Positions 7,231 through 57,450 of a stretch of DNA of 64,000 bases are shown here, one piece after another (position 1 is the first letter of the stretch; each line of letters starts with the position of its first letter). The notes beneath the pieces are model-generated. The model was not told the DNA's origin. It was given only the letters and a program-made list of their open reading frames with translations, and did not search any database. Source of the stretch: Candidatus Latescibacterota bacterium (GTDB lineage Bacteria; Latescibacterota; UBA2968; UBA8231); the NCBI GenBank assembly GCA_965206595.1, contig OZ242214.1:1394986-1458985 (forward strand), written 5' to 3'. Made by a program: the position numbers and the translations under genes.

Positions 7231-7693
7231 TCACTCGAAGTCGGACGAACTCTGGTTGAACTGCGTCGGCCAGCCGTTCCCGCATCGGCGTCGAAAACCG
7301 CGAGCCAGACGGTGACGGTCTCCCGCGGTTCGAGGGGCCAGTACCTGGCATCCTGGTGCCAGGGAACCGTCGATTCGTCGTGGGGGAACTTGATGAAGAA
7401 GGCCCCTCCCCACTGGTAGAAGTCGGGGCCGAGAAGGTCCTCGACGTAGTCGAGAACGGCGGGGATGCGGCCCAGCTCATGGACCAGCGGTTCGCCTTGT
7501 GCCAGTTGTTGACGCGGTAGATGTCGACGCTGTCCGGCACGCTGTCGACGAGCTCCGTGAACTCCCGCTGCAGCGTCGCGACCCCCTCCTCGTCGAGCAG
7601 GCGCAGGTTCTTCAGGTAACCGGTCTCGTGGAACTGTTCGATCCGGGCCGGGGTCAGGCGCAGGCCCCTGGCCGCGGCGGCGATTTCAGACAT
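7231..7693 (-). pseudogene. PhyH-family dioxygenase remnant (frameshifted, C-terminally truncated)
   Basis: Starts MSEIAAAARGLRLTPARIEQFHETGYL; after a shift near 7485 the alternate frame continues LVHELGRIPAVLDYVEDLLGPDFYQWGGAFFIKFPHDESTVPWHQDARYWPLEP (H-x-D iron motif); a second shift leads to a stop at 7231, so the distal His and Arg are missing. Confidence 0.6.
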
Positions 7694-7887
7694 GGGAGGT
7701 CTCCTCGTCGGGCTGGTGAAAGGGCCATGGCGAACCGACGCAAGGCCTAAGAGCGGACCCTGATTCTGCGTGCCTCGCGAACCTCACGGAGCCCCGCGCC
7801 GTCAACTCCAGGGATTGCGGACGTCAATTTCCGTTCTCCTGGCGAATCGGACCGCTGACCGGCCGGTCCCTCCGGCAGCGGCTCCGC

Positions 7888-8820
7888 CTACAGAGGGCTG
7901 GTGGTCGCCGCGGCCCCTGCCCGCTCTTCGGCCCACGCCTTGAGCGGGACGTCGTCCCAGTTCGAAGTGATCCAGTACTGGGAGGAGGGGTGGAACTCCG
8001 GCGTCTCCCCGAGGGGAGGCGACCCGGTGGCCAGCGCTCCCAGCAGCTGGCGGCGTATCGGAGAGCTGCGCGCGATCAGCTCGGGGTCCTGCTCGATGTA
8101 GTCGGTGGGCCGCAGCCAGCGGTAGTGGTAGCCGACGTGCATGATCTGGCGCGTCCTCGCCGACAGGTTGGGGCCGACGCAGTGCCAGGTCGCGGTGCGC
8201 CAGAGCACCGCGGTGCCGGGGGGAATCCTCAGCTCGACCGCGTCGTCGGGATCGACCGCGGAACCGTTCCGCAGCTCCTGCGGCCGCCGCAGGTGGCTGC
8301 CGGGCACCACCCAAAGGTTGCCGGAGTTCGACTCGCCGAGGTCGGAGAAGGCATAGAAGATCTTGACCTCCATGAACGGCAGGCGCCCGTCGAGGGAGGG
8401 GGCCTCGAACAGGTAGCTGCCGGCGAGATCGGGGTGCCAGTTGACGTTGCGGTACCCGGCCCGATGATCCTCCCCGTCGCCAAGGCCGACCCCTCCGGTT
8501 CGCATCCGGCGGGGGTAGGGCGGCCGGTAGTCGAGGTGGGAGGTGCGGATCTGGATGTTCCAGCCGATGGCGTCGACGACCAGGGGAAGGGCCTTCGGGT
8601 GATCGATCAGGTCGAGGAAAGCGTCGTGCTGGGCGAGGGCGTTGCGGACGGCAAAAGGCTCTTCGGGACCGAGGCCGGTCGATTCCCGGAGACGGGCGGC
8701 CACCTCGTCGACCGCTTCGAGCAGGCGGCCGACTTCGTACGGCTCGAGGAAGTCGTCGAGGATGACGTACCCCTTCTCCTCGAAGTCCCGCTGCTGCTCT
8801 GCGGTCATGGCGATGGCCAT
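7888..8820 (-). CDS. Phytanoyl-CoA dioxygenase (PhyH) family Fe(II)/2-oxoglutarate-dependent oxygenase
   Basis: 310 aa; N-terminal TAEQQRDFEEKGYVILDDFL, H-x-D (NWHPD), distal His (TWHCVGPN) and Arg. Confidence 0.85.
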   Translation of the reverse strand: MAIAMTAEQQRDFEEKGYVILDDFLEPYEVGRLLEAVDEVAARLRESTGLGPEEPFAVRNALAQHDAFLDLIDHPKALPLVVDAIGWNIQIRTSHLDYRPPYPRRMRTGGVGLGDGEDHRAGYRNVNWHPDLAGSYLFEAPSLDGRLPFMEVKIFYAFSDLGESNSGNLWVVPGSHLRRPQELRNGSAVDPDDAVELRIPPGTAVLWRTATWHCVGPNLSARTRQIMHVGYHYRWLRPTDYIEQDPELIARSSPIRRQLLGALATGSPPLGETPEFHPSSQYWITSNWDDVPLKAWAEERAGAAATTSPL

Positions 8821-8848
8821 CGTTCGGCTCTCGTCGCGCCTTGGGGGG

Positions 8849-9493
8849 TCAGTTCGACCCGGCCCAGCGCACCCCCTGGGTCATCAGCGCCTGCATGGCC
8901 GGACGCTGGAAGGTGCCGGCGGTGTGCCCGAGGGCGGTGTAGAAGACCCGCCCCGCCTTGTACGGCTTGACCCAGGCCATCGGATGCGGCTTGTCGCTCC
9001 ACTCCGCCGTGGCGAGGATGCGGATGGCGGGATCCCAGGCCGACATGTAGATCTCGTCCTCGACCTCGAAGTCGGAGATGCCCCGGGTCACCGGGTGGGT
9101 GCCGTCCTCGATGTTCACGGTGAAAGTCAGGCCGGGAGGATGCCAGTTGGCGTGCCCGCCGAGGAGATCGACAGCGCGCGCCCCGACCCACCAGCCGGTG
9201 CCGTGGACTCCGACCAGGCCCTTGCCGCCGGCGACGAAATCGAACAGCCCGTCCTCCTGTTCCTGGGTGAGGTCGGGCTCCCGCAGCACGCCCCCGTCCG
9301 GCCCCTGGAAGGCGCGGGTGAACCCGGTTCCGAACACGCAGGCGTCGAACTCGCGCAGCGCCGCGGAAGCGAGGATGTCCTTGTCGCCGTCCAGTTGCGC
9401 TTCGAGGTCGCCGGCCGTATTAAGGAATCCGCAGATCACCTCGGCGCTCTGCCCGAAGCCGTGATTTTCGCCCGACAAAACCAGAACCTTCAT
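8849..9493 (-). CDS. ThuA-domain protein (class I glutamine amidotransferase-like fold)
   Basis: 214 aa; MKVLVLSGENHGF ... FYTALGHTAGTF; GGAGGG RBS 9 nt upstream of ATG. Confidence 0.8.
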   Translation of the reverse strand: MKVLVLSGENHGFGQSAEVICGFLNTAGDLEAQLDGDKDILASAALREFDACVFGTGFTRAFQGPDGGVLREPDLTQEQEDGLFDFVAGGKGLVGVHGTGWWVGARAVDLLGGHANWHPPGLTFTVNIEDGTHPVTRGISDFEVEDEIYMSAWDPAIRILATAEWSDKPHPMAWVKPYKAGRVFYTALGHTAGTFQRPAMQALMTQGVRWAGSN

Positions 9494-9608
9494 TCGCAGT
9501 CCCTCCGTTGTGGTGGAATAGCATCCCGATATGGTTGCTCAGCAGGCCAAGGCCTGCCGCAGCCCAGATGGACTTCAGCAACGGGCTGATAACCCGGGGA
9601 AGATAGAT

Positions 9609-10550
9609 ATGGAGCTCGTGAGATATCCAGACAGCCGCATCGAAGTGCTCGACGACCGCTTCGCCCGCTACAAGCTAGCCAACGCCGCCCTCGAGATGCT
9701 GTGGACCGGGGGACGCTGGCTCGAGGGGCCGGTCTGGTTCGGCGACGGTCGCTACCTGCTGTTCAGCGACATCCCCAACGACCGCATCCTCAAGTGGGAG
9801 GAGGAGACCGGGGAGGTGTCCGTTTTCCGCAAGCCCTCCAACAACAGCAACGGCAACACCCGGGACCGTCAGGGCCGCCTGGTCAGCTGCGAGCACCGCA
9901 CCCGCCGGGTCACCCGCACCGGGCACGACGGCACGATCACCGTGCTCATGGACCGCTTCGAGGGGCGGCGGCTGAACGCACCGAACGATATCGTGGTCAA
10001 GTCGGATGGATCGATCTGGTTCACCGACCCGGGGTACGGCATCCTGATGGATTACGAGGGAGGCCGGGCCCCCTTCGAGAACGCCGCCAACGTCTACCGC
10101 CTCGACCAGGAAACCGGAGAGGCGACGGTGGCTGCAGGGGACTTCCGCCGCCCGAACGGCATCTGCTTCAGCCCCGACGAGTCGCTGCTCTACATCGTCG
10201 ACACCGGGCGCTCCGACGGCCCCGAGCACCCGACCCACATCCGCGTCTTCGACGTCGAGGGGGAGCGCCTTGCCAACGGCCGCGTCTTCGCCGACATGGA
10301 GCCGGGCGCCTCGGACGGCATCCGCACGGACCTGGACGGCAACCTGTGGTCGGGGGCCTGTTGGGGGGGAGAGGGGTACGACGGCGTCCACTGCTTCGCC
10401 CCCGACGGCGCCCTGATCGGCAAGGTCCACCTGCCGGCTCCCTGCTCAAACCTCTGCTTCGGCGGCCGCAGGAAGAACCGGCTGTTCATGACCTGCTCGC
10501 AGTCGCTGTTCTCCGTCTACCTCGAGACGAACGGAGCGCAGACTCCGTAG
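9609..10550 (+). CDS. SMP-30/gluconolactonase/LRE-like lactonase
   Basis: Beta-propeller lactonase features (EGPVWFGDGRYLLFSDIPNDRI, NAPNDIVVKSDGSIWFTDP, RPNGICFSPDE). Start set at ATG 9609 (MELVRYPDS), because the ORF track start 9531 would overlap the divergent ThuA gene. Confidence 0.85.
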   Translation: MELVRYPDSRIEVLDDRFARYKLANAALEMLWTGGRWLEGPVWFGDGRYLLFSDIPNDRILKWEEETGEVSVFRKPSNNSNGNTRDRQGRLVSCEHRTRRVTRTGHDGTITVLMDRFEGRRLNAPNDIVVKSDGSIWFTDPGYGILMDYEGGRAPFENAANVYRLDQETGEATVAAGDFRRPNGICFSPDESLLYIVDTGRSDGPEHPTHIRVFDVEGERLANGRVFADMEPGASDGIRTDLDGNLWSGACWGGEGYDGVHCFAPDGALIGKVHLPAPCSNLCFGGRRKNRLFMTCSQSLFSVYLETNGAQTP

Positions 10551-12283: not shown

Positions 12284-12709
12284 TCAATGCGGCTCCGAAC
12301 CGGTGGTCCTCTCCGGCGATGTGCAGCTCTCCGCCTTGGCCAGGGCCTCGAGCCGGGCGGCGATGCCTGCGGCCAGCCCTCCCGGTTTCACGCCGACGAC
12401 CGACAGGTCGCCGCGCCCTGCTGCCGCGGTGAGACTGGAGAGATCCGCCACCCGGAAGAGCCGCGTTCCCGTCCGCCGCCGCCGTCCGAGTTCTCTCCAG
12501 GTGCCGGCGGCCAGGTCCGTAGAAGCGAACAGGCAGGCGAGCTGACGGACGCGCCGCACCGCGGACAGGCCCATCACCGTGTCCCCGGACTGGCAGCCGA
12601 TGCCTATCAGGCGGGATATCGCCGCGACCGCAGCTTCGTCGAGCAACTCGGCCTCGACGGAGGGGGCTGGCCTTTCCTTGTCCCGCTGATTTCGTTTTGA
12701 GGACCCCAC
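12284..12709 (-). CDS. Possible L7Ae/YlxQ-like RNA-binding protein (start uncertain)
   Basis: Core LIGIGCQSGDTVMGLSAVRR ... LACLFASTDLAAGT ... GVKPGGLAAGI resembles the L7Ae/YlxQ fold pattern; first codon is GTG without a clear RBS; an internal TTG (~12649) has GAGG upstream. Confidence 0.3.
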   Translation of the reverse strand: MGSSKRNQRDKERPAPSVEAELLDEAAVAAISRLIGIGCQSGDTVMGLSAVRRVRQLACLFASTDLAAGTWRELGRRRRTGTRLFRVADLSSLTAAAGRGDLSVVGVKPGGLAAGIAARLEALAKAESCTSPERTTGSEPH

Positions 12710-12869
12710 GGCCCGAACCTATCATCCACGCAAGCGCACCGCCAGGGGTGCCCCCCGCGGGTTCGAGCAGGCAAGCGGGTTCAAACTGGGACTCCACTTT
12801 CTCCCGGTAAAACGGATCCGGACTATTCACGAAAGGGCTCTCCATGTCCGTCGATAGACCCAGCCGCCC

Positions 12870-13884
12870 TAGTGTCCTGTCGTATAATTAACTGTACAAA
12901 CAATTGAAGGTGCCGTAGGTTTCTCTTATCCCCCTTCTGAAAGGAGAGACCTATGGTGACGGGGCGTCCATTACCGCCGTTAGAGCTGAGTCCGTCGGAC
13001 CGGGAACGATTGGAATCGATGGCCAAATCCCGGAGCCTTTCCCACGGGTTGGTGCGGCGAGCCGAGATTAGTCTGCTGGCCGCAGAAGGCGGGCCCAATG
13101 AAGCCGTCGCCGCCGCCGTGGGTGTGACGCGTGCTACGGCTTTCTCGAAAACGGGCAAGTGGCGCCGGCGCTTTCTCGAAAACGGGCTCCAGGGCTTGCA
13201 TATGGTTTGCAGCCCCATCGACACAAGCACTTCACGCTTTCCACCGATCCTTTCTTTGTCGACAAAGTACGGGATATCGTCGGCTTATACCTGAATCCCC
13301 CCGAGCACGCCCTGGTGCTGTGCGTCGACGAGAAGAGCCGGATCCAGGCGTTGGAACGAAGTCAGCCCATGCTGCCCCTGGGACTGGGATACGTGGAAGG
13401 GATTACGCACGATTACAAGCGCCATGGCACCACCACCCTGTTTGCCGCCTTGGACGTAGCCACCGGGGAAGTGATGACCCAGTGCAAGCCCCGTCATCGT
13501 CACCAGGAGTTCCTTCAGTTCCTGCGCCACATCGAGGCCCACGTCCCCGCTGACCTCGATATTCATCTCGTCGTCGACAACTACGCCACGCATAAGCATG
13601 CCAAGGTCAAGCGATGGTTGGCACGGCGTCCCCGATTTCACGTTCACTACACCCCCACCTATGCTTCGTGGCTCAATCAGGTGGAGATCTGGTTCAATAT
13701 CCTTACCCGCCAGGCGGTTCGCCGGGACTCGTTCCGCAAGGTGTCGGAGCTCATCGAGCGCATCGAACGCTACACGGCCAAATGGAACGCCAACGCACAC
13801 CCTTTCGTGTGGACGGCTACGGCCGATTCCATCCTCGCGAAAATCAAGAGACTTTGCGAACGAATCTCTGCGACACAACACTAG
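12870..13884 (+). mobile_element. IS630/Tc1-mariner-family insertion sequence, copy 1 (degenerate)
   Basis: Ends shared with copy 2 begin right after a TA on each side (TA|GTGTCCTGTCG ... CGACACAACAC|TA); imperfect 11-bp terminal inverted repeats; about 157 bp shorter than copy 2. Confidence 0.8.
12953..13884 (+). pseudogene. IS630-family DDE transposase, copy 1, inactivated by ~170-bp internal deletion plus a 12-15-bp duplication
   Basis: Split into ORFs 12953..13294 and 13159..13884; relative to copy 2 the segment encoding [16 protein letters not shown]...HRIWRTYGL is missing and CTTTCTCGAAAACGG is duplicated; otherwise near-identical at DNA level. Confidence 0.8.
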
Positions 13885-15768
13885 CCTGTCGAGTCTCCGC
13901 AGGGAGGCGAAATCCCTGCTCGACCGGGCGCGGCGCAAAGAGCATGAAGCGTTGGCCCTCATTGGCGAGCACCACCCGGACCCGGGAGAGTTCAGCACCT
14001 ATCGCGACGCCTTGCTGGTGGTCGCCCGCAAACAGGGGCATGCCGGGTGGGGGGAGTTGCAGCGGGCTTTCGAGGAGGAGGCCGGAGCCTCGGGAAAGCT
14101 CGAAGAACGGGCCGATCTGTTCGCCGAGCTCGCCTGCCTTTCGTATCGCGGCGACGACCACGTCAGCCGCCGAGAGCGCGCCGCCCGCATGCTGGGCGAA
14201 ACTCCTGGGATTTCCAGGGTGAGCCCCTGGGCAGCCGCGGCCGCTTCCGATGTCGAAGCTCTTGGGCAGCTGATCGGGGATGGGGAAAGCGCGGTCGTCC
14301 CCGGCGGGCGGCGCGACTGGCCGCCCCTCCTCTACCTCTGCTTCAGCCGGGTTCCGGATGCCCGGCCGGGGGGCGACGCCCTGGCCGCGGCGGAATTTCT
14401 GCTCGCCGCCGGCGCCCCCGGCGACACCAGCGTCGGCCCGGAGGAACGGGGGGGCTGGAGCTGGTCGGCCCTGACAGGGGTCATGGGGGAAGGGGAGCAT
14501 GGCCTCCTGCAGCAGCCCCCCCACCCGCGGGCCCGCGAGCTGGCGGAGGTGCTGCTCGACGCCGGGGCCGACCCCAACGACTCCCAGGGGCTCTACAACA
14601 CCATGTTCACCCCGGACAACGAGTGGCTCGATCTGCTCCTGTCACGCGGTCTGCAGGCCTCCGCAGTGGTCTATCCCTCCCACGACCCGCCGCTGAGAAC
14701 CCTCGACTACCAATTGTGCTCGGCGGTGAAGAGGGGGGTGGCCGAACGGGTGTCCCTGCTGCTGGGGCACGGCGCCGACGTGGCGGCACCCGATATGTAC
14801 AACGGCCGCTCGAACTACGAGAACGCCGTTCTCGGAGGCTTCCCGGAGATCGCGGAAATGCTGGCCCAGCACGGCGCCGAGGTTGTCGAGCTGTCCCTGG
14901 AGGACCGCTTCACCGCGGCGGTGATGAGCGGCGACGAGAGCAGGGCGAGACAGCTGCTTGAAGAAGCTCCCCGCATGATCGAGAACCCCGAGCTGCTCCA
15001 GGAAGCGGTCACCAATACCGCGGCGACGCGCCTGCTTCTCGACCTCGGGGCCGATCCCGACGCCCCGAACGAGAGGGGACGCGTCCCCCTGCACTGGGCC
15101 GCCTGGGAGAACAGCGGCGAGGTCGTCCGCCTGCTGCTGGCTCGCGGGGCGAACGGCGAGATCCGGGAGCGGGACCACGACGCCACCCCGGTCGGCTTCG
15201 CCAATCACGCCGGCCACTTCGAGCTTCGCGGCCTGCTGCTCGATCACAGCAGGGACGTGTTCGACCTGACCGCCTACGGAAGGGCGGGGCAGCTCGCCGC
15301 GGTCCTGGAATCCGACCCGGACCTGGCGAATGCCCGCCTCGTGGGAGGGCACACCCCGGTTCACGGCGTTGCGGCAGGCCCCGAAGGGGAACAGGTGCTC
15401 GACCTCCTGCTCGCCCACGGCGCCGACATCGACGCCCCTGCAGCCGACGGCACGACTCCGCTGTCCGCGGCGCTCGAGCGCGGGGACGAGGAGCTGGCAG
15501 CCCTTCTGAGGGCGCGCGGCGCCAGGGAACCCGAGGGGGACTGAGGCTCCCGGCGTTCCGGTTCGCCGCCGCAAAACCGACCATCCTGCCGGTTCCTCCA
15601 CTGACCCACCCGGGAGATCGGGTGCATTCGGCCGGGGCAACGAGGTGCCCCCCGGCGGTGAAGCAGCTGTCCGCCGCTTGTTCCGGGTCACCTGTTTGCC
15701 TATTAACGTGTCCGGCAGGCCTCGCCGCGGCGGGGCCGGGAGACCCAGGAGACACGCGGAGAATAGCG

Positions 15769-16644
15769 ATGGCCAAACGCGACCTGAACTTCGATCCCGA
15801 AGAGGGGATCGGCTTCATGAACATCGACGAGACCGACTACGGCGCCATGACCCTGGGGGAGAAGATGCGCCACCTCGAGGTCGAGGGGTACGTCGTCCTT
15901 CCCGGCGTTCTCGACGCCGATCGCATGGACCGCATCAAGCAGGAGATGGCGGACGCGCCGATGGGGACCAAGGACTACAGCGACTGCCAGACCTACCACC
16001 GCGAGCCGCAGTGGTACAGCCCGGCCCTGGCGGAAGCGATCGCCAATCCGCCCGTGGTCGAGTTCCTCGAGGCCCTCTGCGGCGAGGAGATCGTCTTCAC
16101 CCGCGGGCTGTTCACGCGCACCCTGTCCGGGTCCCCACCGATCTCCCTGCACACCGACGGGCAGCCGTTCGGCTCCTCGATCTTCGGGTACGAGGGCAGC
16201 TCGCCGAAGCTGCTGCGGGTGCTCTACTACCTCGACGACCTCACCCCCGAGCGGGCCCCCCTGCGCGTGCTGCCGCGATCCCACCTCTCCTTTCACGCCG
16301 ATGCCAACCCGTACGTGCGTTACAAGTCGCACCCGGGAGAGGTGACCCTTTGCGCAAAGGCGGGGACCGCGGTCGTATTTCCGGTCAACATCTTCCACGG
16401 CACCCACCCCAACCGGTCGGATGCGCTGCGCACCCTGGTGCAGCTGGGGTACCGTCCGGCCTGGGCGGGCCCGATTCAGCCGATGGAGGATTGGGACCCC
16501 GAGCTGGTCGCCGCCGCCCCGGCCGTGGCGCGCCGCTTCCTGCAGAGCCTCAACACCTCCGGGGTCGACTGGGAGCAGCCGCACAAGCCGGCGGGGATGA
16601 GGGCGGACGCGCCGGCGATCGCCCCGGAACGCTGGGAACAATGA
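15769..16644 (+). CDS. PhyH-family Fe(II)/2OG dioxygenase
   Basis: H-x-D (SLHTDGQ), distal His (FHGTHPNRSD), Arg. Start at ATG 15769 (MAKRDLNFDPEE) with GGAG RBS; the ORF track extension from 15622 is not credited. Confidence 0.85.
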   Translation: MAKRDLNFDPEEGIGFMNIDETDYGAMTLGEKMRHLEVEGYVVLPGVLDADRMDRIKQEMADAPMGTKDYSDCQTYHREPQWYSPALAEAIANPPVVEFLEALCGEEIVFTRGLFTRTLSGSPPISLHTDGQPFGSSIFGYEGSSPKLLRVLYYLDDLTPERAPLRVLPRSHLSFHADANPYVRYKSHPGEVTLCAKAGTAVVFPVNIFHGTHPNRSDALRTLVQLGYRPAWAGPIQPMEDWDPELVAAAPAVARRFLQSLNTSGVDWEQPHKPAGMRADAPAIAPERWEQ

Positions 16645-20356: not shown

Positions 20357-20359
20357 TGC

Positions 20360-21226: not shown

Positions 21227-21323
21227 GGATGCTCCTTTTGCTCAAGGTCTGGGGGGTGACGCGATGGAAACAAATACGGGGTCCCGCGGTGGAAAAACAA
21301 CGAGTGCCATGCGCCGGGGCCAA

Positions 21324-22406: not shown

Positions 22407-22569
22407 GCTTTCGGTCTCCTGGTCATGCAAAGGCAACCATCCGCCGGCAGGCTCGGAGGCGGTGCCACGGGTTTTCCGGCGCGGCTATGCCGGGGTTGAT
22501 CGCAGCGAGCCGTGCCGTACAATGCAGCCGCGAGGATAAGCAGTTCGACCTGAGACGGGAAGAAGCGAC

Positions 22570-47172: not shown

Positions 47173-47409
47173 GAGCAGAAAGATAGAACCGGGGACGGCC
47201 TATCCAAATAGTGTCAGGGGCAGGGATGCGAGGGCAAGCAGGGCGATGGCCAGGACCCGGAGGTAGCATCCCTTCGCGACTGTCGGCGTGCCATCAGGCG
47301 GTCGACACCTTACCATGATCGCCGCCGGTCCATGCCGCTACAGGCTAGTCCAAAACAGGGCAGGAATGAAACAACTTGGAATGCGGGGGAAACAGTGGTA
47401 CCGTTATGC

Positions 47410-48581
47410 TAGTGTCCTGTCGTATAATTAACTGTACAAACAATTGAAGGTGCCGTAGGTTTCTCTTATCCCCTTTCTGAAAGGAGAGACCTATGGTGAC
47501 GGGGCGTCCATTACCGCCGTTAGAGCTGAGTCCGTCGGACCGGGAACGATTGGAATCGATGGCCAAATCCCGGAGCCTTTCCCACGGGTTGGTGCGGCGA
47601 GCCGAGATTAGTCTGCTGGCCGCAGAAGGCTGGCCCAATGAAGCCGTCGCCGCCGCCGTGGGTGTGACGCGTGCTACGGTCGGCAAGTGGCGCCGGCGCT
47701 TTCTCGAAAACGGGCTCCCGGGCTTGCATGATGAGCTGCGCTCAGGGGCGCCACGATCGAGTACGGATGAACAGGTAGCCGAGGTGGTATACAAGACCCT
47801 GAAGACCAAGCCCAAAGACGAAACACAGTGGTCGGTGCGCTCCATGGGCGAAGAAACCGGCTTGACCAAGGACGCGGTTCATCGCATTTGGCGCACGTAT
47901 GGTTTGCAGCCCCATCGACACAAGCACTTCACGCTTTCCACCGATCCTTTCTTTGTCGACAAAGTACGGGATATCGTCGGCTTGTACCTGAATCCCCCCG
48001 AGCACGCCCTGGTGCTGTGCGTCGACGAGAAGAGCCGGATCCAGGCGTTGGAACGAAGTCAGCCCATGCTGCCCCTGGGACTGGGATACGTGGAAGGGAT
48101 TACGCACGATTACAAGCGCCATGGCACCACCACCCTGTTTGCCGCCTTGGACGTAGCCACCGGGGAAGTGATGACCCAGTGCAAGCCCCGTCATCGTCAC
48201 CAGGAGTTCCTTCAGTTCCTGCGCCACATCGAGGCCCACGTCCCCGCTGACCTCGATATTCATCTCGTCGTCGACAACTACGCCACGCATAAGCATGCCA
48301 AGGTCAAGCGATGGTTGGCACGGCGTCCCCGATTTCACGTTCACTACACCCCCACCTATGCTTCGTGGCTCAATCAGGTGGAGATCTGGTTCAATATCCT
48401 TACCCGCCAGGCGGTTCGCCGGGACTCGTTCCGCAAGGTGTCGGAGCTCATCGAGCGCATCGAACGCTACACGGCCAAATGGAACGCCAACGCACACCCT
48501 TTCGTGTGGACGGCTACGGCCGATTCCATCCTCGCGAAAATCAAGAGACTTTGCGAACGAATCTCTGCGACACAACACTAG
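47410..48581 (+). mobile_element. IS630/Tc1-mariner-family insertion sequence, copy 2 (intact)
   Basis: About 1.17 kb; TA at both junctions; same imperfect 11-bp terminal inverted repeats as copy 1; single intact transposase ORF. Confidence 0.85.
47493..48581 (+). CDS. IS630-family DDE transposase (intact, 362 aa)
   Basis: N-terminal helix-turn-helix-like region, DDE-type core ([15 protein letters not shown] ... [19 protein letters not shown] ... [12 protein letters not shown]); RBS GAAAGGAGAG. Confidence 0.9.
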
Positions 48582-49122: not shown

Positions 49123-49156
49123 CCCCGTCGAGCCATGCTCGGCGGGGTTTTTTTTA
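49123..49156 (+). terminator. Rho-independent terminator (GC-rich hairpin + T8)
   Basis: CCCCGTCGAGC-CAT-GCTCGGCGGGG followed by TTTTTTTT, 26 nt after the stop of 48612..49097. Confidence 0.65.
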
Positions 49157-49597
49157 CATGCCGAGTGCCCTGGCCCCGGTCCGGGTCAGGCGAGCCGAGG
49201 TCCACTCCGGCTCCCAGGTAAAGTCGACGATGCACTGGCGTACCCCGTCCACGGCGAGCACGCGGTCGCGGATCGGGTTGCCGATGAATTGGTACTTCGG
49301 GCGGCCGCGGTGCGGCATCGTCATCAGGATCCTGGCCACTCCGTCGTCGACCCGCAGATCGTAGATGTACCCCATGTCGACCACGTTGCTGTCGATCGCC
49401 ATCAGCTGATCGTCTTCGACCTGGCGCAGGGCCTCCCATACAGAGCGTTTGAGCGCATGGTCGGCGGCGCCGGCATGGGTCAGGCCGGTCTCGCCCGGGC
49501 GCCCCAACCTTCCGTTGGCGGTTGCCTTCACCTCAGGTAGCTCTCCTTCCGAAACCGAAAGCGGGTTCAGCAGACGACGGCGCAGGTCCTGTACCAT
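49154..49597 (-). CDS. DUF59/MIP18-like (metal-sulfur cluster assembly-type) domain protein
   Basis: C-terminal 147 aa of ORF 49154..50158 from the ATG preceded by GGAGGAGA; domain pattern VWEALRQVEDDQLMAIDSNVVDMGYIYDLRVDDGVARILMTM...VDFTWEPEWT. Confidence 0.55.
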   Translation of the reverse strand: MVQDLRRRLLNPLSVSEGELPEVKATANGRLGRPGETGLTHAGAADHALKRSVWEALRQVEDDQLMAIDSNVVDMGYIYDLRVDDGVARILMTMPHRGRPKYQFIGNPIRDRVLAVDGVRQCIVDFTWEPEWTSARLTRTGARALGM

Positions 49598-50958
49598 TTC
49601 GCGGCCGTTCTCCTCCGGGTAGTGCGAGGCGAAGTATGCGTTCTTTGAAAGAGCGCCGACCCCTCCTGCAAATCCGTCCTGCCGTGGATGGGGGCGCGGC
49701 ACCAGATCTGGCCGCGGCCGAAATAGCTGAGGTTGGGAGGACCGCTGTGGTTCAGGGGGCCGCAGTTTTTCGACCGATGCTCCAGCCAAAGGGCTATGAA
49801 AGCGTCGCGGCTTTCGCGGCGGAAGAACCCGACGCCCCATTGGTCGTTCTCGTGGGAAACTGGCACTTCCCCTTCGTGCAGAATCCCCTCGCGGTCGATC
49901 CAGACGGAGTCGCTGAACGGCATCCCGTAGAACAGCCACTCGTCGTCGCGCACCACGTTGGTCTCGAAGCGCGCCAGCGCATCCATGCGGCTCTCCTTGA
50001 GGAACCAGGGGAGCCCGGCGTAGAAGGTGTAGGTCAGGTCCATGTGCAGCCGGCTCGGCGTAAACACCGGGTGCAGGGAAGAGCGAGGAAACCCCCAGCG
50101 GCGCACCTGCACGCACAAGGGGCCGCGAATCACCTCGTAGTTCGGGCAGCGGGACCACCCGGTTACGCGAAATTTTTGGTAGTTGCCGGAGCCCATGTAG
50201 TCGTGGCCCCAGTCGATTCCCGGAGGTTCGCCGTGCCCTTCTCCCCCGGTGTACAGCTCCAAGGGGGCGCCGTAGGGCACGATCCCGAAGCCGCGTCTGA
50301 ACTGCAGCCGCTGCAGCTGGCCGTTCTGGGCGGAAAGGTGGGCGGTGAAGTGGTTGCTGGCGATGCTGAGGCCGAACTCCTCGCCGCTGACCGCCAAGTC
50401 GGTAGGGTACTCCGGCAACTCGGCGTCGCGGTTGCCGTACAGAATCAGGTACCGGCCGCGGCTGTTGGCCGGCAGATCGACCTGGAGCAGCAGCCGGCAG
50501 CTTCGCACCTCGCCGTCGAACACCTCCCGACAGACCTGGCTCGGCACCTCGCGCAGGGTCCCGCTTTCGTCATCGATCCTGGCGACGCGAAGCTCGCGTC
50601 GCAGATCGGTTACCTGGTCGGCAGCAAATTCGACGACGCTCTCGACAGGCTCCCTCGATCTTTCCAGGCCGGCGCTCTCGGCGATCTCCAGGACCTTGTA
50701 GAAGGCCCATCCCCGCGCCCAGTCCTCCCACGGGTCCGGCAGCCCCGCCACGCGCCCGAAGCTCGAAGCCGGGGAGGGGGCCGCTTCGCCGCTGCCATGG
50801 CCGGACAGGTGCCGCTGGCGTTCGAAGGTCAGCGTCTCCTTGATCGACTCGGCCAGCGACATGGCGACATCGATGTTGCCCTCCCGGTGTGCAGTCTCCA
50901 GGAGGCGCAATTTCACCTCGACGCTGTCGGTACGGTGCCGGTATTCGGTCTCTGGCAT
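49567..50958 (-). CDS. Hypothetical cytoplasmic protein (463 aa, no family recognised)
   Basis: Start at internal ATG 50958 (MPETEYRHRTDSVEV) with AGGAGAAAG RBS; the upstream 216 codons of ORF 49567..51606 are not credited; C-terminal ~25 aa look low-complexity. Confidence 0.5.
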   Translation of the reverse strand: MPETEYRHRTDSVEVKLRLLETAHREGNIDVAMSLAESIKETLTFERQRHLSGHGSGEAAPSPASSFGRVAGLPDPWEDWARGWAFYKVLEIAESAGLERSREPVESVVEFAADQVTDLRRELRVARIDDESGTLREVPSQVCREVFDGEVRSCRLLLQVDLPANSRGRYLILYGNRDAELPEYPTDLAVSGEEFGLSIASNHFTAHLSAQNGQLQRLQFRRGFGIVPYGAPLELYTGGEGHGEPPGIDWGHDYMGSGNYQKFRVTGWSRCPNYEVIRGPLCVQVRRWGFPRSSLHPVFTPSRLHMDLTYTFYAGLPWFLKESRMDALARFETNVVRDDEWLFYGMPFSDSVWIDREGILHEGEVPVSHENDQWGVGFFRRESRDAFIALWLEHRSKNCGPLNHSGPPNLSYFGRGQIWCRAPIHGRTDLQEGSALFQRTHTSPRTTRRRTAAKWYRTCAVVC

Positions 50959-52220: not shown

Positions 52221-53234
52221 CTACAGCTCCGCGGCAAGAACCCACATCGGATTCTCTCCCACCTCGTAGCTGTCGAGGAAAGCGAGCTCCCCCGAACCGC
52301 GGTCGATTCCATACGCCGACATCCTGCCGCTGTCGACGCCGGCTGCGAAGACGAACTTCCCTAGCGGGTCGATGTCGAACCCGCGCACGTGGGGTTCGGT
52401 CGGGACGCGACAGATGAGGGTGAGTTCCCCGGAAACCGGATCGATGGCGAAGCAGGCAACCGAATCGTGGCCGCGGTTGGGAGCGTAGAGGAACTTCCCC
52501 GAAGGGTGAACTCGCAGCTGCGAGGTGGTGTTCCCGCCCCGGTCGAAATCGGCGGGCAAGGTCGAGATCGTCTGAAAGGGTGGCGACAGGCGGCCGTCCT
52601 CCGCAACGCGGTATGCCGAAATGCTGCTCCCCTGCTCATCGGTCGTGTACATCACCTCGAGACGGGGATGGAAGCGGATGTGCCGCGGGCCGGTCCTCGC
52701 AGGGGGGACGAGGACGCCGAGATCCTGCAGCGCGATCTCGCCGGTCTCGCCGTCGTAGGTGTACTGGAAGATGGCGTTCTGGGTAATGCAGTGGGGAACG
52801 TACACGTACCGGTTGTTGGGGTGTACCTGGACCGAATGCGCTCCCCGAATCGAATGGACCGTACAGGCCGCGGGGGCGATCAGGGCCCCGTCTTCTCCGA
52901 CGCGATAGCTGCTCGCACGGGCGCCACCGTTGCTCGAGGTGAGCATGAACCTGCCGGTGGCGTCGGAAGTCGCGTACACGGAATCCGACTCTTCGGCGAT
53001 GGTTCCGAGAAGATCCAGGGATCCGTCGCGCGGGTCGATGGCAAAGCTCGCGAACCGGCTGGCCCTGCGCTGGACCACGTAGAGGACCCGTTTTCCCGGC
53101 TCGATGGCGATGGCAGCAGGTCCACCTCCAAGGGGGGTCTGGTGAGCCAGGTCGAGGGCGCCGGTTTCACCATCCATGGAGTAGGCGGCGACCCTGTCCT
53201 CATCCATGATCGAGACGTATATGTAGCAGGCCAT
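52221..53234 (-). CDS. 7-bladed beta-propeller lactonase (6-phosphogluconolactonase/YbhE-like)
   Basis: Repeated propeller blades (HPNNRYVYV, HPRLEVMYT, HPSGKFLYAPNRGHDSV); start at internal ATG 53234 (MACYIYVSIMDED). Confidence 0.7.
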   Translation of the reverse strand: MACYIYVSIMDEDRVAAYSMDGETGALDLAHQTPLGGGPAAIAIEPGKRVLYVVQRRASRFASFAIDPRDGSLDLLGTIAEESDSVYATSDATGRFMLTSSNGGARASSYRVGEDGALIAPAACTVHSIRGAHSVQVHPNNRYVYVPHCITQNAIFQYTYDGETGEIALQDLGVLVPPARTGPRHIRFHPRLEVMYTTDEQGSSISAYRVAEDGRLSPPFQTISTLPADFDRGGNTTSQLRVHPSGKFLYAPNRGHDSVACFAIDPVSGELTLICRVPTEPHVRGFDIDPLGKFVFAAGVDSGRMSAYGIDRGSGELAFLDSYEVGENPMWVLAAEL

Positions 53235-53905
53235 CCTGTCTCCTCTGGTTTGGGTATGGGTTGTCCAGGGCAACCTACGGGAATCCTTCTCCTGCGACCA
53301 ACGCCGCGGGTGGAGCCTCGCGACCCCGTCCCTGGGGATCGGCTCGCATGCGGTAGAAATCCCTTATATCCGGATGCCAGGTACAGGATGGGTTGCGACC
53401 ACGGGCGCTCCCTTTCCCTCGATGCCCACAAACACGGGCCTGGAGGGAAAGGGAGCGGAACGCGCTCTACCTGCCGACACCGTACTACACTCCCGGCGGC
53501 CGTGAATGGGAGGAACTCGACCCCGTGCTGCCTGCCGGCTTCGACCCGGAGGGGCCGGCGGAGTTCGAGGATTTCTGATTTGGGGAAGAGTACGTGTCAG
53601 CTCCCGACGAGGGGGCGGGACCACGAATGCAGCGGTGGCGAAGGACTGCACGTGTTGAAGATCATCATGGGGCTGTTCGAGTCTGCCGCATACGGCCGTC
53701 GAATGGAAATGCCGCAGAAACCGGAGTCATCCCCTGCTGCGCTGGCGCCGGGAACACGGCCTCGGCGATCCAGGACCGTGCCGAGAGACTACGGGGAGTG
53801 GCTGGCGGTCGAGGATGAACGACTTGCCGGGAAGAGCCCGAACGCGTAAGTCCGGGTTCGTACCGAGGGGGCGGATGCCCCCGTAGCCACTGACAGCTGG
53901 GGGGA

Positions 53906-54772
53906 TCAGGCTGCTTCGGACAGGTTCTCCGGCATGTTCTCGAGCCTCGTCATCCAATAGTGGGCGTCGAAATTCCCGTCGCCGGTCAGAAATCGCCACA
54001 GCTTGATCCTGTTGACGATCTCGAGACGCCCGTCGGCCGCCTCGAACCAGGGCTCCTGCCGGTTGAGGATCGTCGGGATGCTGTCCTCTCTGTGGCTCGA
54101 ACCGCCGTAGATGATTTCCGGCCCTCCCCCTTCATCGAGGTCATCGGTGTTCCACAGTCGCAGCTGCCGCACCGTGGGGTTCAGGCGGATCTTGAACATG
54201 TAACGGACCCGGTCGGTCTTGTTCTGCCGGCCGCAGTGCCAGATGCCGTGGTGGACGACCGCCAGGGTGCCCGCTTTGCACACCATCGGCAGCTGTCCGA
54301 GGAAGTTCTGGTAGCGGCCGACGTCGAGCTCGTTGACGCGGCGGAAATGGCTTCCCGGAAGCAGCATGGTGCCGCCCATTTCCAACGGCACGTCGTGGGG
54401 GAAGTACATCAACTGGATGTCGAAGTGCATGCGCATGTCGATGATCGAGTCGCCGTGCAGCCCCTGGGCATGGCCTTCGTTCGGCTGGCGGACGTGAACG
54501 GCCTGATGGTCGAACAGGGGGTCTTCTCCGACCAGGCTCTGGATGATCCCGTGTATTTCCGGCATCCTCAGCATCTTTCCGACAGGAGAGGGGTCGGGGT
54601 AGCATTTCGACAACGGGGTGCCGGCGGGTTGGCTGTCGATGCCGCCGCCGTCGATCTCGGCGATCACCGCCCGATTGATCTCCCCGGGTACGATCTCGTC
54701 CAACTGAAGCACGCCGCGGGCCACGAATTCAGCCATCTGACTCGAGTTGAGCAGGTACTTTTTTTCGACCAT
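53906..54772 (-). CDS. PhyH-family Fe(II)/2OG dioxygenase
   Basis: Start at internal ATG 54772 (MVEKKYLLNSSQMAEFVARG) with GGAGGAGA RBS; H-x-D (LHGDSIID), distal His/Arg (IWHCGRQNKTDRVRY). Confidence 0.85.
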   Translation of the reverse strand: MVEKKYLLNSSQMAEFVARGVLQLDEIVPGEINRAVIAEIDGGGIDSQPAGTPLSKCYPDPSPVGKMLRMPEIHGIIQSLVGEDPLFDHQAVHVRQPNEGHAQGLHGDSIIDMRMHFDIQLMYFPHDVPLEMGGTMLLPGSHFRRVNELDVGRYQNFLGQLPMVCKAGTLAVVHHGIWHCGRQNKTDRVRYMFKIRLNPTVRQLRLWNTDDLDEGGGPEIIYGGSSHREDSIPTILNRQEPWFEAADGRLEIVNRIKLWRFLTGDGNFDAHYWMTRLENMPENLSEAA

Positions 54773-55050
54773 CAGTCGATCTCCTCCAGTTTCTCGAAGA
54801 TGAACTCGTTCTTTTGAAACGAAGTGGTGTACTCGGTGTCGGGGTAGGGAGGGATCAACTGCGGGAACTGGATCACCCTCCACCCGTCGAGCAGGGCGTC
54901 GAGGCCGGTTTCGTACGGCGGTTCGCTGCTGTCGCCGGTGGTGTGGTGCTCTTTTCCGGTGCCGTCGTAGAAGGTCCATCCCTTGACCGGGCTGTCTAGC
55001 GCCGAGTAGGACAAGTAAAGAATCATCACCTTCTGTCTGCGCTCCGGCAT
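54772..55050 (-). CDS. Small hypothetical protein (~90 aa) translationally coupled to the downstream PhyH gene
   Basis: Stop TGA overlaps the PhyH ATG (TGATG); candidate starts at ATG 55062 or 55050 (GGAG 8 nt upstream); sequence MPERRQKVMILYLSYSALDSPVKGWTFYDGTG...; no family recognised. Confidence 0.45.
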   Translation of the reverse strand: MPERRQKVMILYLSYSALDSPVKGWTFYDGTGKEHHTTGDSSEPPYETGLDALLDGWRVIQFPQLIPPYPDTEYTTSFQKNEFIFEKLEEID

Positions 55051-55135
55051 CTCCTTCTCCATCCCCAGAAGTGCTGGGTGTCGGGCAGTCACTCTTCCTG
55101 TTTCACCAAATGATAAGCACTTCCGGGCCCTGCCG

Positions 55136-56341
55136 TCAGGCGGATGCAGGCGCCGCCGGCAGGCTGACCAGGGCCCGGTCCCTGATCGGCAGGTGGACGA
55201 TCGCGGCCGCGACCCCGAGAACGATGGCCCCGACCCAGACAGCATCGTACGATCCGGTGGCATCGTAGATGCGGCCTCCGAGCCAGACCCCGAGGAATCC
55301 ACCGACCTGGTGGCTGAAGAAGACGATCCCATAGAGCGACGAGAGCCTGGCGGGTCCGAAGATCTGGGCGACGGTACCGCTGGTCAGCGGCACTGTCGCC
55401 AGCCAGAGAAACCCGATGGCGCAGGCGAAGATCAGGGCGGTCGCCGTGGTGACGGGCACCACCAGGAAGCCGCTGATGACCAGGGCCCGGGCGAAGTAGA
55501 GGAAGCTGAGAAGGTATTTTTTGCGGTAGCGATCCCCGAGCCGGCCGAAGAGATAGGATCCCCCCATGTTGAACAGCCCGATCAGGGCGAGGGCGGCGGC
55601 AGCGGCCATCTCGGGTAGCCCGTGATCGCCGAGGTAGGCCGGCAGGTGGGTGGCAATGAAAGCGACATGGAATCCGCAGACGAAGAAACCGGCGTTCAGC
55701 AGCAGGTAGCCCGAATGCTTGCCCGCCTGTGACAGGAGGCGGGAAAAGTTGTCCTCGAGGTCGGAGGTGCGGGTACCCTCCCGGGCATGCGATGCCGGAG
55801 GGAATCCGAGTGCGAAGAAGGCGATGGCAGCGACCACGGCGGCGCCGTACAGCAGGGTGGCCTGCCACGATACGGTGTCGATCAGCCACTGGATCAGCGG
55901 GACGAGGGCGAAGGTGCCGAAGGAACCGGCAGCGGTTACGATGCCGAAGGAGGTGACCCTCTTTTCGGCCGGGACCACCCGGCTGACGGCGCCGAGAAGG
56001 ACGACGTAGGACGTGGCGCTGAGAGCCAAACCGACGAGGACCCCGAGGGAGAGGAAGGTGAGCCAGGGACCGGTAGCGACGGCGAGGAGGACGAAGCCGG
56101 CGGTGTACAGCAGAGCCCCGGAGGCCACTACCCGGCGCGGGCCGATGCGGTCGGCGAGCATGCCGGCGATCGGCAGCCCGAACAGGATGTTCTGCAGGGC
56201 CATGGCGAGGCTGAAGGTCTCCCTGCCCGTCGACAGGGATTCCGTCACAGGTTGCAGGAACAGGCCGAAGGACTGCCTGGCTCCCATGGAGATGGCGACC
56301 GTGACCGCGCTGATCAGGATGACGAGGGTGGATTTCTTCAC
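55136..56341 (-). CDS. MFS-family transporter
   Basis: 401 aa; about 12 hydrophobic helices; typical cytoplasmic-loop motifs (GMLADRIGPRRV, GRLGDRYRKK). Confidence 0.85.
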   Translation of the reverse strand: MKKSTLVILISAVTVAISMGARQSFGLFLQPVTESLSTGRETFSLAMALQNILFGLPIAGMLADRIGPRRVVASGALLYTAGFVLLAVATGPWLTFLSLGVLVGLALSATSYVVLLGAVSRVVPAEKRVTSFGIVTAAGSFGTFALVPLIQWLIDTVSWQATLLYGAAVVAAIAFFALGFPPASHAREGTRTSDLEDNFSRLLSQAGKHSGYLLLNAGFFVCGFHVAFIATHLPAYLGDHGLPEMAAAAALALIGLFNMGGSYLFGRLGDRYRKKYLLSFLYFARALVISGFLVVPVTTATALIFACAIGFLWLATVPLTSGTVAQIFGPARLSSLYGIVFFSHQVGGFLGVWLGGRIYDATGSYDAVWVGAIVLGVAAAIVHLPIRDRALVSLPAAPASA

Positions 56342-56580
56342 GACGAGGCGATCCGCAGGGATTCAGGACATCTGCCGCGGCTTGTGGCCGGGGATCGGCG
56401 ATGGCTACAATCCGCATCCGGCCGATTGCGGAAGGAACCCGGAAACCGCGCCAGCCTTCGTAAATTCAGGGAGAAAGGGGACCGGGAGGCGGGGTGGTCG
56501 GGCGGGGCAAGGGAAGATCAGGGCAATCCGCTTTCAGGCAGGCCGCCGGGGAGGTAACCGTCCGCATGAGTTCTCTACCG

Positions 56581-57450
56581 CTAAGCGAAATACATCTCCC
56601 CGGAAAAAGGCAGGGGTTGCGAAGGCCGTTCGTAGTGGATCTGTTTCGGAGTCCTTTCGAGGGCCGCTGCCCACTGGTCGCGCCAGTCCTCGTAGCGGGT
56701 TTCCGACCCCGGGTCGCGACGGCTGCGAACCACGCTGCTGGGCCACTCCGGCCGCGGTGAGGGCTCCCCGGCCTTCTGGTAGCGCAGATCCATGCTCCAG
56801 CGCACGCCGTCGGTGTTGTTGGGGCCGGAGCCGTGCGGGGTCAGCTTGTGCACGAACAGCACGTCCCCCTTCTTCATCGGCAGCGTCACCTTCTCGACAT
56901 CGGGCAGGTCGTGGTGGTAGGTCCAGTAGACCATGCGGTTGCGGTGCACGCGGGGCAGAACCTGGAGGCAGCCGTTCTCCTCGGTGGCGTTGACGAGGGG
57001 CACCCAGACCGTCACCTGCAGGATCCCGGCAGCTTCCTGGGTGGTGAATACGGCGTCCTGATGGAAGATGACGTCCGTCGACGGCATCTTCGGGCGCACG
57101 TGAGAAACCGCGTTGCAGCTGATTTCGGGACCGATAAAGGGCTCGATGAGATCGACGAGGTTCTCGTTGCGCAGGAACTCGAAGGTGGCGCGGCGGCGAG
57201 TGACGCCGATATCGGGACAGCCGTCGACTTTCTTGGAGTCCTCGCCAAGCCGGGCAAGTCGGGTTTCGAATGGCTCCTCTGCGTGGAGATCGTCGATCTC
57301 CCCGCGGGCGTGAAGGTCCCTGGCGATCCCGTCGACGATGGCGATGTGGTCCTGGATGAGGGGTTCGAAATCGGCGTCGGTAAGTCCCCCTTCGACAACG
57401 ACGTACCCTTCTTCCTTGAAGAACTCGAGATGTTCGTCGGTGGTTTTCAT
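56581..57450 (-). CDS. PhyH-family Fe(II)/2OG dioxygenase
   Basis: Start at internal ATG 57450 (MKTTDEHLEFFKEEGYVVVEG); H-x-D (IFHQDAVF), distal His/Arg (KLTPHGSGPNNTDGVRWS). Confidence 0.85.
   Translation of the reverse strand: MKTTDEHLEFFKEEGYVVVEGGLTDADFEPLIQDHIAIVDGIARDLHARGEIDDLHAEEPFETRLARLGEDSKKVDGCPDIGVTRRRATFEFLRNENLVDLIEPFIGPEISCNAVSHVRPKMPSTDVIFHQDAVFTTQEAAGILQVTVWVPLVNATEENGCLQVLPRVHRNRMVYWTYHHDLPDVEKVTLPMKKGDVLFVHKLTPHGSGPNNTDGVRWSMDLRYQKAGEPSPRPEWPSSVVRSRRDPGSETRYEDWRDQWAAALERTPKQIHYERPSQPLPFSGEMYFA

Follow-up and report, generated by a model that had tools for sequence, protein, structure and literature searches.

Seven divergent PhyH-family oxygenase genes in several probable modules of a marine Candidatus Latescibacterota genome

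To our knowledge, almost no bacterial member of the PhyH family (Pfam PF05721) of Fe(II)- and 2-oxoglutarate (2OG)-dependent oxygenases has a known substrate. A 64-kb stretch of chromosomal DNA from an uncultured marine Candidatus Latescibacterota bacterium, represented by a metagenome-assembled genome (MAG), carries seven intact PhyH genes. This stretch, all of which was analysed, is henceforth referred to as ‘the window’, and the question it raises is whether its PhyH genes form one locus, as an initial annotation of the same DNA had supposed, or several modules that lie close together. Because the GC content of the window is 61–69%, raw lists of open reading frames (ORFs) are unreliable; genes were called by third-position GC and by a codon-usage log-odds model, 40 in all. 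The PhyH copies were named A to G in coordinate order, and a WelO5-like gene was named W. The explanation that we favour, with a probability of roughly 0.6, is that many anciently diverged PhyH genes exist in this lineage and that the copies in the window belong to separately inherited modules and are not steps of one pathway.

PhyH copies and related oxygenase genes of the window

To establish membership of the family we took the Pfam gathering score of PF05721 (22 bits) as threshold. All seven copies lie above it, at 35.3–121.7 bits, and the seven intact PhyH-type genes of the initial annotation are thereby confirmed. A hidden Markov model (HMM) built from the seven copies and run against all six frames of the 64 kb recovered only these seven and one fragment. 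A candidate second fragment at 34026-34217(+) (tblastn E=0.007) proved to be noise, since its alignment is gapped, of low complexity and holds no catalytic motif. In a MAFFT alignment of the seven copies the HxD motif, the distal His, the His of the PGSH motif, an Asn and the Arg are invariant, and the ligand columns of the seven-copy profile align with ‘HQD’ and ‘HGSGQNKTQGFR’ of human PhyH (2a1x) and also with SnoK and PHYHD1. In human PhyH, His175, Asp177 and His264 form the iron triad and Arg275 binds the C5 carboxylate of 2OG. The H-x-D...H...R signature ascribed earlier to every intact copy is thus present at the matching columns, and judged by these residues the seven oxygenases look catalytically competent.

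All-versus-all alignment gave pairwise identities of 20–32% over long alignments, the closest pairs being A/E (32%) and C/D. Identity as low as this excludes both recent duplication and a collapsed-repeat artefact; on sequence distance, the seven copies are old, anciently diverged paralogs. The initial annotation had placed the divergence in the N-termini and had concluded that the substrates differ. Different substrates are indeed likely in view of the deep divergence, but the divergence is spread across the whole protein and an N-terminal ‘F-x-E-x-GY’ motif is among its better conserved parts. Copy F is the weakest Pfam scorer, and its fold alone was checked by predicted structure. Its AlphaFold2 model (pLDDT 80.6, pTM 0.82) gave, in a Foldseek search, a top 50 composed entirely of PhyH-class oxygenases (probability 1.00, TM ~0.5), and by this model copy F has a genuine PhyH fold. 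The seven enzymes are probably cytoplasmic, because no signal-like N-terminal hydrophobic stretch was seen in any of them.

Next to copy A, at 7231-7693, lies the decayed PhyH gene that had also been reported in the initial annotation, and tblastn and direct reading of the DNA agree that it is a real, frameshifted and shortened remnant. Its N-terminus is of PhyH type from an ATG at 7693 (‘LTPARIEQFHETGY’), the reading frame shifts near 7485, ‘VPWHQDARYW’ is kept, and tblastn matches at 7284-7508(-) are found with copy C (E=1e-4) and copy D (E=4e-6). Similarity is lost after ~7284, and the distal His and the Arg are therefore absent.

The gene described previously as a further 2OG-oxygenase-like gene, W, belongs to the WelO5 family. 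Its product aligns with WelO5 over residues 82–274, with its ‘HFD’ (H153/D155) aligned to the ‘HVG’ of WelO5; the best PDB match is the G166D variant (5iqu), and the H-F-D motif is kept in four relatives. WelO5-type halogenases lack the carboxylate ligand, and a Gly or Ala at its position (HxG/A) leaves a site for the halide. A halogenase identity was rejected for W, which has Asp there, and because of this Asp the protein is predicted from its sequence to hydroxylate and should not halogenate. W is paired with a creatininase-family amidohydrolase gene and does not lie in an indole-alkaloid cluster.

Conservation and density of the PhyH genes

To determine which of the genes are inherited together, we compared ~20 kb around each index gene in related genomes (loci L001–L004 for the left and L083 and L084 for the right part of the window). 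Judged by copy C, the window is closest to two Candidatus Latescibacterota MAGs, with 94% and 93% identity, L003 being the closest relative (94%). The left block, from a 477-aa gene to YdjM (~11.1–24.9 kb), is syntenic at 84–94% nucleotide identity in L001, L003 and L004, and the synteny with L001 stops near 24.9 kb, at transposases; left-block relatives hold B, W and C within ~6–9 kb. The right block (~40.4–64 kb) is syntenic at 78–89% nucleotide identity in L083 and L084. These two loci carry G, a major facilitator superfamily (MFS) transporter gene, a 92-aa ORF, F, an oxidoreductase gene of the GFO/IDH/MocA family (GFO), a lactonase gene, FBPase, a 601-aa gene, a 161-aa gene and E within ~11 kb. 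In sample ERZ26166995 an ortholog of C (75% identity) is on a 2.37-Mb contig and an ortholog of F (80%) on a 3.59-Mb contig. Conserved co-location of all members was not found in the related genomes, in which only sub-blocks are conserved.

Overall, the PhyH genes are distributed over five or more separate modules and do not form one locus. In the partition that we propose, module 1 would be ThuA and A; module 2 would comprise B, the 2-hydroxyacid dehydrogenase, the creatininase-type amidohydrolase and the WelO5-like hydroxylase; module 3 would be C and the class IV aminotransferase with two GFO oxidoreductases; module 4 would be D alone; module 5 would be E, with or without a pair of Rieske-domain proteins; and module 6 would comprise G, the MFS transporter, the 92-aa ORF and F, together with a short-chain dehydrogenase/reductase (SDR), the lactonase and, in relatives, the GFO gene. 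The two conserved blocks would have been brought close together here by a variable segment that is lower in GC and rich in insertion sequences (IS).

Within the modules several genes are tightly coupled. ThuA and A are on the same strand and 28 nt apart, with A downstream; the last 4 nt of B are shared with the start of the 2-hydroxyacid dehydrogenase gene; and the creatininase-family gene lies 5 nt upstream of W, a pair that is kept in L001–L004. Orthologs of B are 94% identical in L001 and L004, and in both the ankyrin gene is also beside B. The aminotransferase gene lies 3 nt downstream of C and the two are adjacent in L002 too, a relative at ~75–80% identity; in L001, L003 and L004 the pair is split by an insertion of 0.4–3.8 kb, and in L003 an extra weak PhyH-like ORF (12571-13350(-), HMM score 63), which is not present in the window, is found between the two orthologs. 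The GFO pair is syntenic in L001, L003 and L004, and L002 retains only the ortholog of the second gene. A different MAG (L107, 11020-13009) has a GFO gene beside a class IV aminotransferase gene, near an F-type cassette, which echoes the GFO, C, aminotransferase arrangement at 19448-22436 of the window.

In the right block, copies E and G have orthologs in both L083 and L084, L084 has the Rieske pair whereas L083 lacks it, and the GH42 glycoside hydrolase gene is absent in both. The two Rieske proteins are 46% identical to each other and both carry a NirD-like Rieske [2Fe-2S] domain at the N-terminus; for the ~470-aa C-terminal region, no relative was found among PDB sequences. G is oriented divergently to the SDR, GH42 and zinc-dependent alcohol dehydrogenase (Zn-ADH) genes. 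Orthologs of F are found across several phyla at 70–94% identity. The 92-aa ORF is highly conserved, translationally coupled to F and always accompanied by an F-type PhyH gene, and no known domain or fold was found for it.

The density of PhyH genes has to be set against the right background. In Poribacteria, PF05721 is the most abundant Pfam family, with >1.9% of genes compared with <0.049% in all other genomes then available, and at 60% identity the 305 poribacterial sequences fall into 193 clusters (Kamke et al. 2014, PMC3909097). For seven or more PhyH genes among 40, the binomial probability is ~1e-16 at a gene frequency of <0.049%, and per window it is 1e-5 at 1.9%, 2e-4 at 3% and 3e-3 at 5%; taken per genome (~130 windows), the last three become 1e-3, 0.02 and 0.4, respectively. 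At least two PhyH genes within ~20 kb were found in 41 of the 89 fetched loci. A Latescibacteria MAG (L088; GCA_012103555.1, WLWO01000007.1, 2942-15350) has four in 17 kb, in the company of a creatininase-family gene, AP_endonuc_2, a molybdopterin oxidoreductase, a beta-helix protein and a sulfatase. The density that the initial annotation called exceptional is therefore so by comparison with typical genomes (seven of 40 genes), but probably not for this kind of organism, to judge by Poribacteria, L088 and the fetched loci. It is probably a lineage trait of a PhyH-rich organism and not the mark of a special locus.

Homologs of copy C (3322 found) reach at least 60% identity in MAGs of Planctomycetes and Latescibacteria and 40–43% in genomes of the Roseobacter group and other Pseudomonadota; further homologs occur in Candidatus Moanabacter, Gemmatimonadetes and SAR202/Chloroflexota. 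Like the window, the poribacterial expansion consists of many highly diverse paralogs of mostly unassignable function in an uncultured marine heterotroph with eukaryote-like repeat proteins. It differs in being a genome-wide count, whereas the window is 64 kb from a different phylum, with its modular context and synteny worked out. We found no published account of an expanded PhyH family in Latescibacterota, and literature searches on such expansions in Planctomycetes or SAR202 yielded nothing usable. The window looks like a new example, in Latescibacterota, of the known expansion of the PhyH family in marine and sponge-associated heterotrophs.

Table 1. Features of the window, in coordinate order.
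Feature	Position	Strand	Basis and remarks
Ammonium transporter, broken MR_MLE, periplasmic binding protein, TonB-dependent receptor, PIG-L deacetylase	before PhyH pseudogene		Pfam
PhyH pseudogene	7231-7693	-	tblastn match and DNA reading; no Pfam hit
PhyH copy A	7888-8820	-	310 aa; Pfam 56.5 bits; H129/D131/H213/R224
ThuA-family protein	8849-9493	-	PF06283, 123 bits; directly upstream of copy A
SMP-30/gluconolactonase-type lactonase	9531-10550	+	PF08450, 177.6 bits
477-aa gene	between SMP-30-type lactonase and deleted IS630 copy		no assigned family
IS630-family element, internal deletion of ~160 bp	12869-13884	+	DDE_3; between 477-aa and ankyrin genes
Ankyrin-repeat protein	13952-15544	+	Pfam Ank_2 and related families
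PhyH copy B	15769-16644	+	291 aa; Pfam 66.1 bits; H128/D130/H210/R221
D-isomer-specific 2-hydroxyacid dehydrogenase	16641-17693	+	PF02826, 148 bits
Creatininase-family amidohydrolase	17797-18594	+	PF02633, 242 bits
WelO5-family Fe/2OG oxygenase (W)	18600-19424	+	PF22814, 76.7 bits
Class IV aminotransferase	19448-20356	-	PF01063, 143.8 bits
PhyH copy C	20360-21226	-	288 aa; Pfam 121 bits; H119/D121/H202/R214
GFO/IDH/MocA oxidoreductase, first of divergent pair	21324-22436	-	PF01408
GFO/IDH/MocA oxidoreductase, second of divergent pair	22570-23679	+	PF01408
YdjM	right end of left block, after GFO pair		Pfam
Broken Y2 transposase, split in two	24974-25985	+	Pfam
IS with DDE_Tnp_1 transposase	26637-28382		Pfam
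PPIase, TonB-dependent receptor, PMT_2/TPR protein	after transposases		Pfam
PhyH copy D	37770-38522	-	250 aa; Pfam 121.7 bits; H118/D120/H203/R215
185-aa gene, receptor fragment, 713-aa protein	after copy D		Pfam; 185-aa gene without assigned family, 713-aa protein with weak CHU_C match
Rieske-domain protein, 580 aa	42697-44439	-	Pfam Rieske; tandem pair, downstream of copy E
Rieske-domain protein, 588 aa	44450-46216	-	Pfam Rieske; tandem pair, downstream of copy E
PhyH copy E	46264-47172	-	302 aa; Pfam 51 bits; H121/D123/H202/R213
Intact IS630-family element	47409-48581	+	DDE_3 and helix-turn-helix; between copy E and 171-aa gene
171-aa gene, 601-aa DUF59 protein, FBPase	between intact IS630 and 7-bladed lactonase		Pfam; 171-aa gene without assigned family
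7-bladed beta-propeller lactonase	52221-53273	-	PF10282, 195 bits
GFO/IDH/MocA remnant	53441-53834	+	tblastn with L083 GFO: C-terminal ~130 residues only, frameshifted
PhyH copy F	53906-54772	-	288 aa; Pfam 35.3 bits; H106/D108/H179/R190; most divergent copy
92-aa ORF	54772-55050	-	overlaps copy F start (TGATG)
MFS transporter	55136-56341	-	PF07690, 136 bits; between G and 92-aa/F pair
PhyH copy G	56581-57450	-	289 aa; Pfam 78.6 bits; H130/D132/H206/R217
SDR	57603-58349	+	Pfam
GH42 glycoside hydrolase	58352-60535	+	Pfam
Zn-ADH	60738-61940	+	Pfam
Gene without assigned family	62035-63102	+	
Second Zn-ADH	63124 onward (window end 63999)	+	Pfam

Between the two blocks, the segment at ~25–40 kb contains transposases, a truncated receptor gene and copy D, and its GC content is 0.61–0.63 between 28 and 40 kb. 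Among 17 related JGI metagenome loci, none shares the neighbours of copy D. The part at 28400-40300 shows no synteny with any fetched relative and may have been horizontally acquired or be decaying; within it, 33350-35045 is without a confidently coding ORF. The two IS630 copies of the window are 99–100% identical (repeats D1/D2/D6) and in direct orientation, and the relatives have no IS at either site. As their flanks are contiguous in the relatives, they are recent simple insertions, and a rearrangement or misassembly mediated by them was rejected because the flanks match the relatives on both sides.

Several genes of the window are broken. MR_MLE is split in two (1495-2587(-)), only the N-terminal 294 aa remain of a TonB-dependent receptor (39329-40213(-)), and the gene for the 601-aa DUF59 protein (49154-50958(-)) has one frameshift near 49650; the GFO gene that is a remnant here is intact in L083. 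Such breaks are either real decay or indel errors of long-read assembly. TonB-dependent receptors with a CarboxypepD_reg domain are present, and the CHU_C match of the 713-aa protein is below threshold (22.8 bits against a gathering score of 27 bits); neither is diagnostic of the assignment to Latescibacterota. Eukaryote-like repeat proteins such as ankyrin are typical of host-associated bacteria, for instance those of sponges, and the ankyrin protein, the several IS elements and the broken genes suggest a possible host-associated lifestyle.

Characterised relatives and catabolic context

Sequence matches to the PDB place the copies among characterised oxygenases only at a distance. The best match is EvdO2 for C (72.5 bits) and D (64 bits) and human PhyH for G (42 bits); those of A, B and E are fungal meroterpenoid dioxygenases or DhiD at 22–30 bits (for A, TlxI at 29.5), and a search with F gave no match. 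The structures of EvdO2/AviO1, EctD, GriE and human PhyH/PHYHD1 share the fold and the HxD...H...R ligands of the window copies, and all matches are far below the level of orthologs. Specific functions were rejected on curated cutoffs: EctD (TIGR02408, cutoff 336.5 bits) scores 46 bits with C and 58 with D; methylphosphonate hydroxylase of the PhnY* type (NF052437, cutoff 500 bits) scores 56, 54 and 40 bits with C, D and G, and no phnZ-type HD phosphohydrolase neighbour is found among the Pfam-annotated genes of the window; the scores for chlorinating enzymes are far below the curated cutoff of 226 bits. Scans of the window against Rfam and for tRNAs came back empty, and hence no riboswitch offers a clue to a ligand.

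The nearest functional lead concerns copy D. Bacterial PF05721 enzymes, one of them from Poribacteria, and human PHYHD1 were shown in 2025 to remove the 2'-O-methyl group of nucleosides through 2OG-dependent hydroxylation (PMC12709175), so that loss of an O-methyl group from a sugar is an established activity within this family in bacteria. In blastp, copy D is 31–32% identical over the full length to three active bacterial 2'-O-methyl-nucleoside demethylases (77–103 bits), and the poribacterial enzyme (32%, 103 bits) is by sequence its closest characterised relative, at an identity too low to transfer the substrate; the other six copies score at most 57 bits. Near the HxD, the distal His and the C-terminus, D and this poribacterial demethylase of the FJS/PHYHD1 type have motifs in common. 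No gene of nucleoside catabolism lies beside D.

In other genomes, orthologs of F lie near MR_MLE dehydratases, an aldo-keto reductase, AP_endonuc_2, two GFO genes, an epimerase and an aminotransferase, and in L088 an ortholog of C has as neighbours a sulfatase and AP_endonuc_2 as well as a creatininase-family gene. In Roseobacter insulae (L043, 700-14750) a C-like (40%) and a G-like (~30%) PhyH gene are a few kb apart in a cluster with an epimerase, a TRAP transporter, the G-like PhyH, a UxaA-type dehydratase, a GFO gene, the C-like PhyH, a 3-hydroxyisobutyrate-dehydrogenase-like gene, EamA and a mannitol-dehydrogenase-family gene, and similar clusters occur in ~35 other Roseobacter-group loci. 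These sugar-acid clusters with two PhyH genes resemble the window in their GFO and dehydrogenase genes, but their TRAP transporter and UxaA-type dehydratase have no counterpart in the window, and the identities are too low for the same substrates to be assumed; no published characterisation of the cluster was found. They are found in cultivable bacteria, and are thus experimentally tractable. The context in three independent lineages points to catabolism of a carbohydrate type. Literature searches on PhyH in polysaccharide utilisation and on 2OG-dependent sugar demethylases yielded nothing usable.

The window itself reads as a region of uptake and catabolism and not of biosynthesis. The interleaved oxidoreductases, two lactonases, class IV aminotransferase and MFS transporter are confirmed by Pfam, and the Pfam scan of the confidently called genes turned up no gene for a scaffold-forming core enzyme (polyketide synthase (PKS), non-ribosomal peptide synthetase (NRPS), terpene or other). 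The ‘oxidative catabolic or tailoring locus’ proposed initially thus keeps its catabolic company, but neither its unity (the blocks are separately conserved) nor its tailoring role (no scaffold-forming gene was found) is supported. From family membership, ligands, divergence, synteny and catabolic context we infer substrate classes and a role in the removal of decorations, as follows. Each enzyme would act in the cytoplasm, given that none has a signal peptide, on an imported small molecule that is derived from carbohydrate or contains nitrogen, and would hydroxylate it at an unactivated carbon with Fe(II), 2OG and O2. If a group such as O-methyl or amino is attached to this carbon, the product of hydroxylation would collapse and release the group, amounting to demethylation or deamination, and the product would then be taken by the neighbouring NAD(P)-dependent dehydrogenases, lactonases or aminotransferase.

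Competing explanations and implications

The obvious alternative to separately inherited modules is one coordinated oxidative catabolic super-locus, held together by selection and acting on a single complex substrate class. Seven PhyH genes among 40 are a local excess even at a background of 2–3%, the modules share cofactor chemistry and partner families (GFO three times, lactonases twice), and relatives keep E, F and G within ~11 kb and B, W and C within ~6–9 kb. We nevertheless consider such a super-locus unlikely. The two blocks are joined by ~15 kb of IS-rich, lower-GC DNA and synteny with L001 is lost at 24.9 kb; in a relative of ~75–80% identity, C and F lie on separate multi-Mb contigs; modules occur singly in other phyla, and no shared regulator was found. 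Moreover, genes in the region seem to be decaying, as in the PhyH pseudogene, the GFO remnant and the frameshifted 601-aa gene. At the other extreme, the adjacency could be without functional meaning, a PhyH-rich genome giving seven copies per 50 kb by chance with the help of IS rearrangement. A genome-wide probability of ~0.4 at a gene frequency of 5%, the four copies of L088 in 17 kb, the recent IS630 insertions and the transposase cluster are consistent with this; at the 1.9% of Poribacteria the probability falls to ~1e-3, and the tight couplings and conserved synteny inside the blocks show that the clustering is not random. Chance adjacency is, in our judgement, distinctly unlikely, although it overlaps the explanation that we favour and differs from it only in denying any selective value to proximity.

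Two further explanations are far less probable. Characterised relatives of these oxygenases are often tailoring enzymes (EvdO2, SnoK/SnoN, SptF, TlxI, KanJ, WelO5), which would fit a natural-product cluster that makes a secondary metabolite and has the PhyH and WelO5-type oxygenases in a tailoring role. We regard this as very improbable, for the window has no PKS, NRPS, terpene cyclase, machinery for ribosomally synthesised and post-translationally modified peptides or sugar-nucleotide pathway, its neighbouring genes are of uptake and catabolism (TonB-dependent receptors, MFS, GH42, lactonases, FBPase), and the WelO5-like protein carries Asp where the halogenase has Gly. Lastly, a chimeric contig or collapsed repeats could have raised the count. 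The assembly is metagenomic, with contig names of relatives suggesting 3–13x coverage, the GC content drops to 0.61–0.63 between 28 and 40 kb and several genes are frameshifted. An artefact of assembly or binning is nonetheless hardly credible when the paralogs are only 20–32% identical, both flanks of the IS630 copies are syntenic with relatives, both blocks match Latescibacterota relatives to a comparable degree (86–94% nucleotide identity), and the adjacency of YdjM and the Y2 transposase also occurs in L003.

Several points weigh against the modular explanation and the catabolic role that we attach to it. If the PhyH frequency of the lineage is ~2% or lower, seven of 40 genes is a real local excess and selection for co-location is possible, and the compared stretches of ~20 kb are too short to show whether the left and right blocks adjoin in the closest relatives. 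Module 2 and the adjacent pair of C and aminotransferase point to a compound resembling an amino acid or a lactam more than to a sugar, and a carbohydrate origin of the substrate may thus not apply to all modules. No copy is tied to a substrate, no curated NCBIfam cutoff is reached and the best PDB matches are weak (≤72 bits). Finally, a putative association with sponges or other hosts is drawn solely from the ankyrin protein, from the IS load and from the taxa among the co-hits.

Within the explanation by separately inherited, anciently diverged modules, a wider proposal can be made tentatively, and we would sooner expect it to fail than to hold: the expanded PhyH paralogs of marine bacteria that degrade glycans, among them Latescibacterota, Poribacteria, Planctomycetes and Roseobacters, may be a cytoplasmic battery that strips decorations from imported sugars and sugar acids, with F and its obligate 92-aa partner as a new two-component member. 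Such decorations (O-methyl, amino or similar) would block the standard dehydrogenase, dehydratase or isomerase routes. If true, a biochemical role could be assigned to a family for which the abundance in sponge symbionts has lacked an explanation since 2014. The window reveals no new kind of system. It splits the PhyH problem into small conserved units (C and aminotransferase; B, dehydrogenase, creatininase and the WelO5-like gene; ThuA and A; G, MFS, 92-aa ORF and F) that recur across phyla beside genes of sugar and sugar-acid catabolism, and these modules, above all the 92-aa/F cassette, are reasonable targets for enzymology. Solving even one such unit would help to explain how marine heterotrophs deal with carbohydrates that are modified or recalcitrant.

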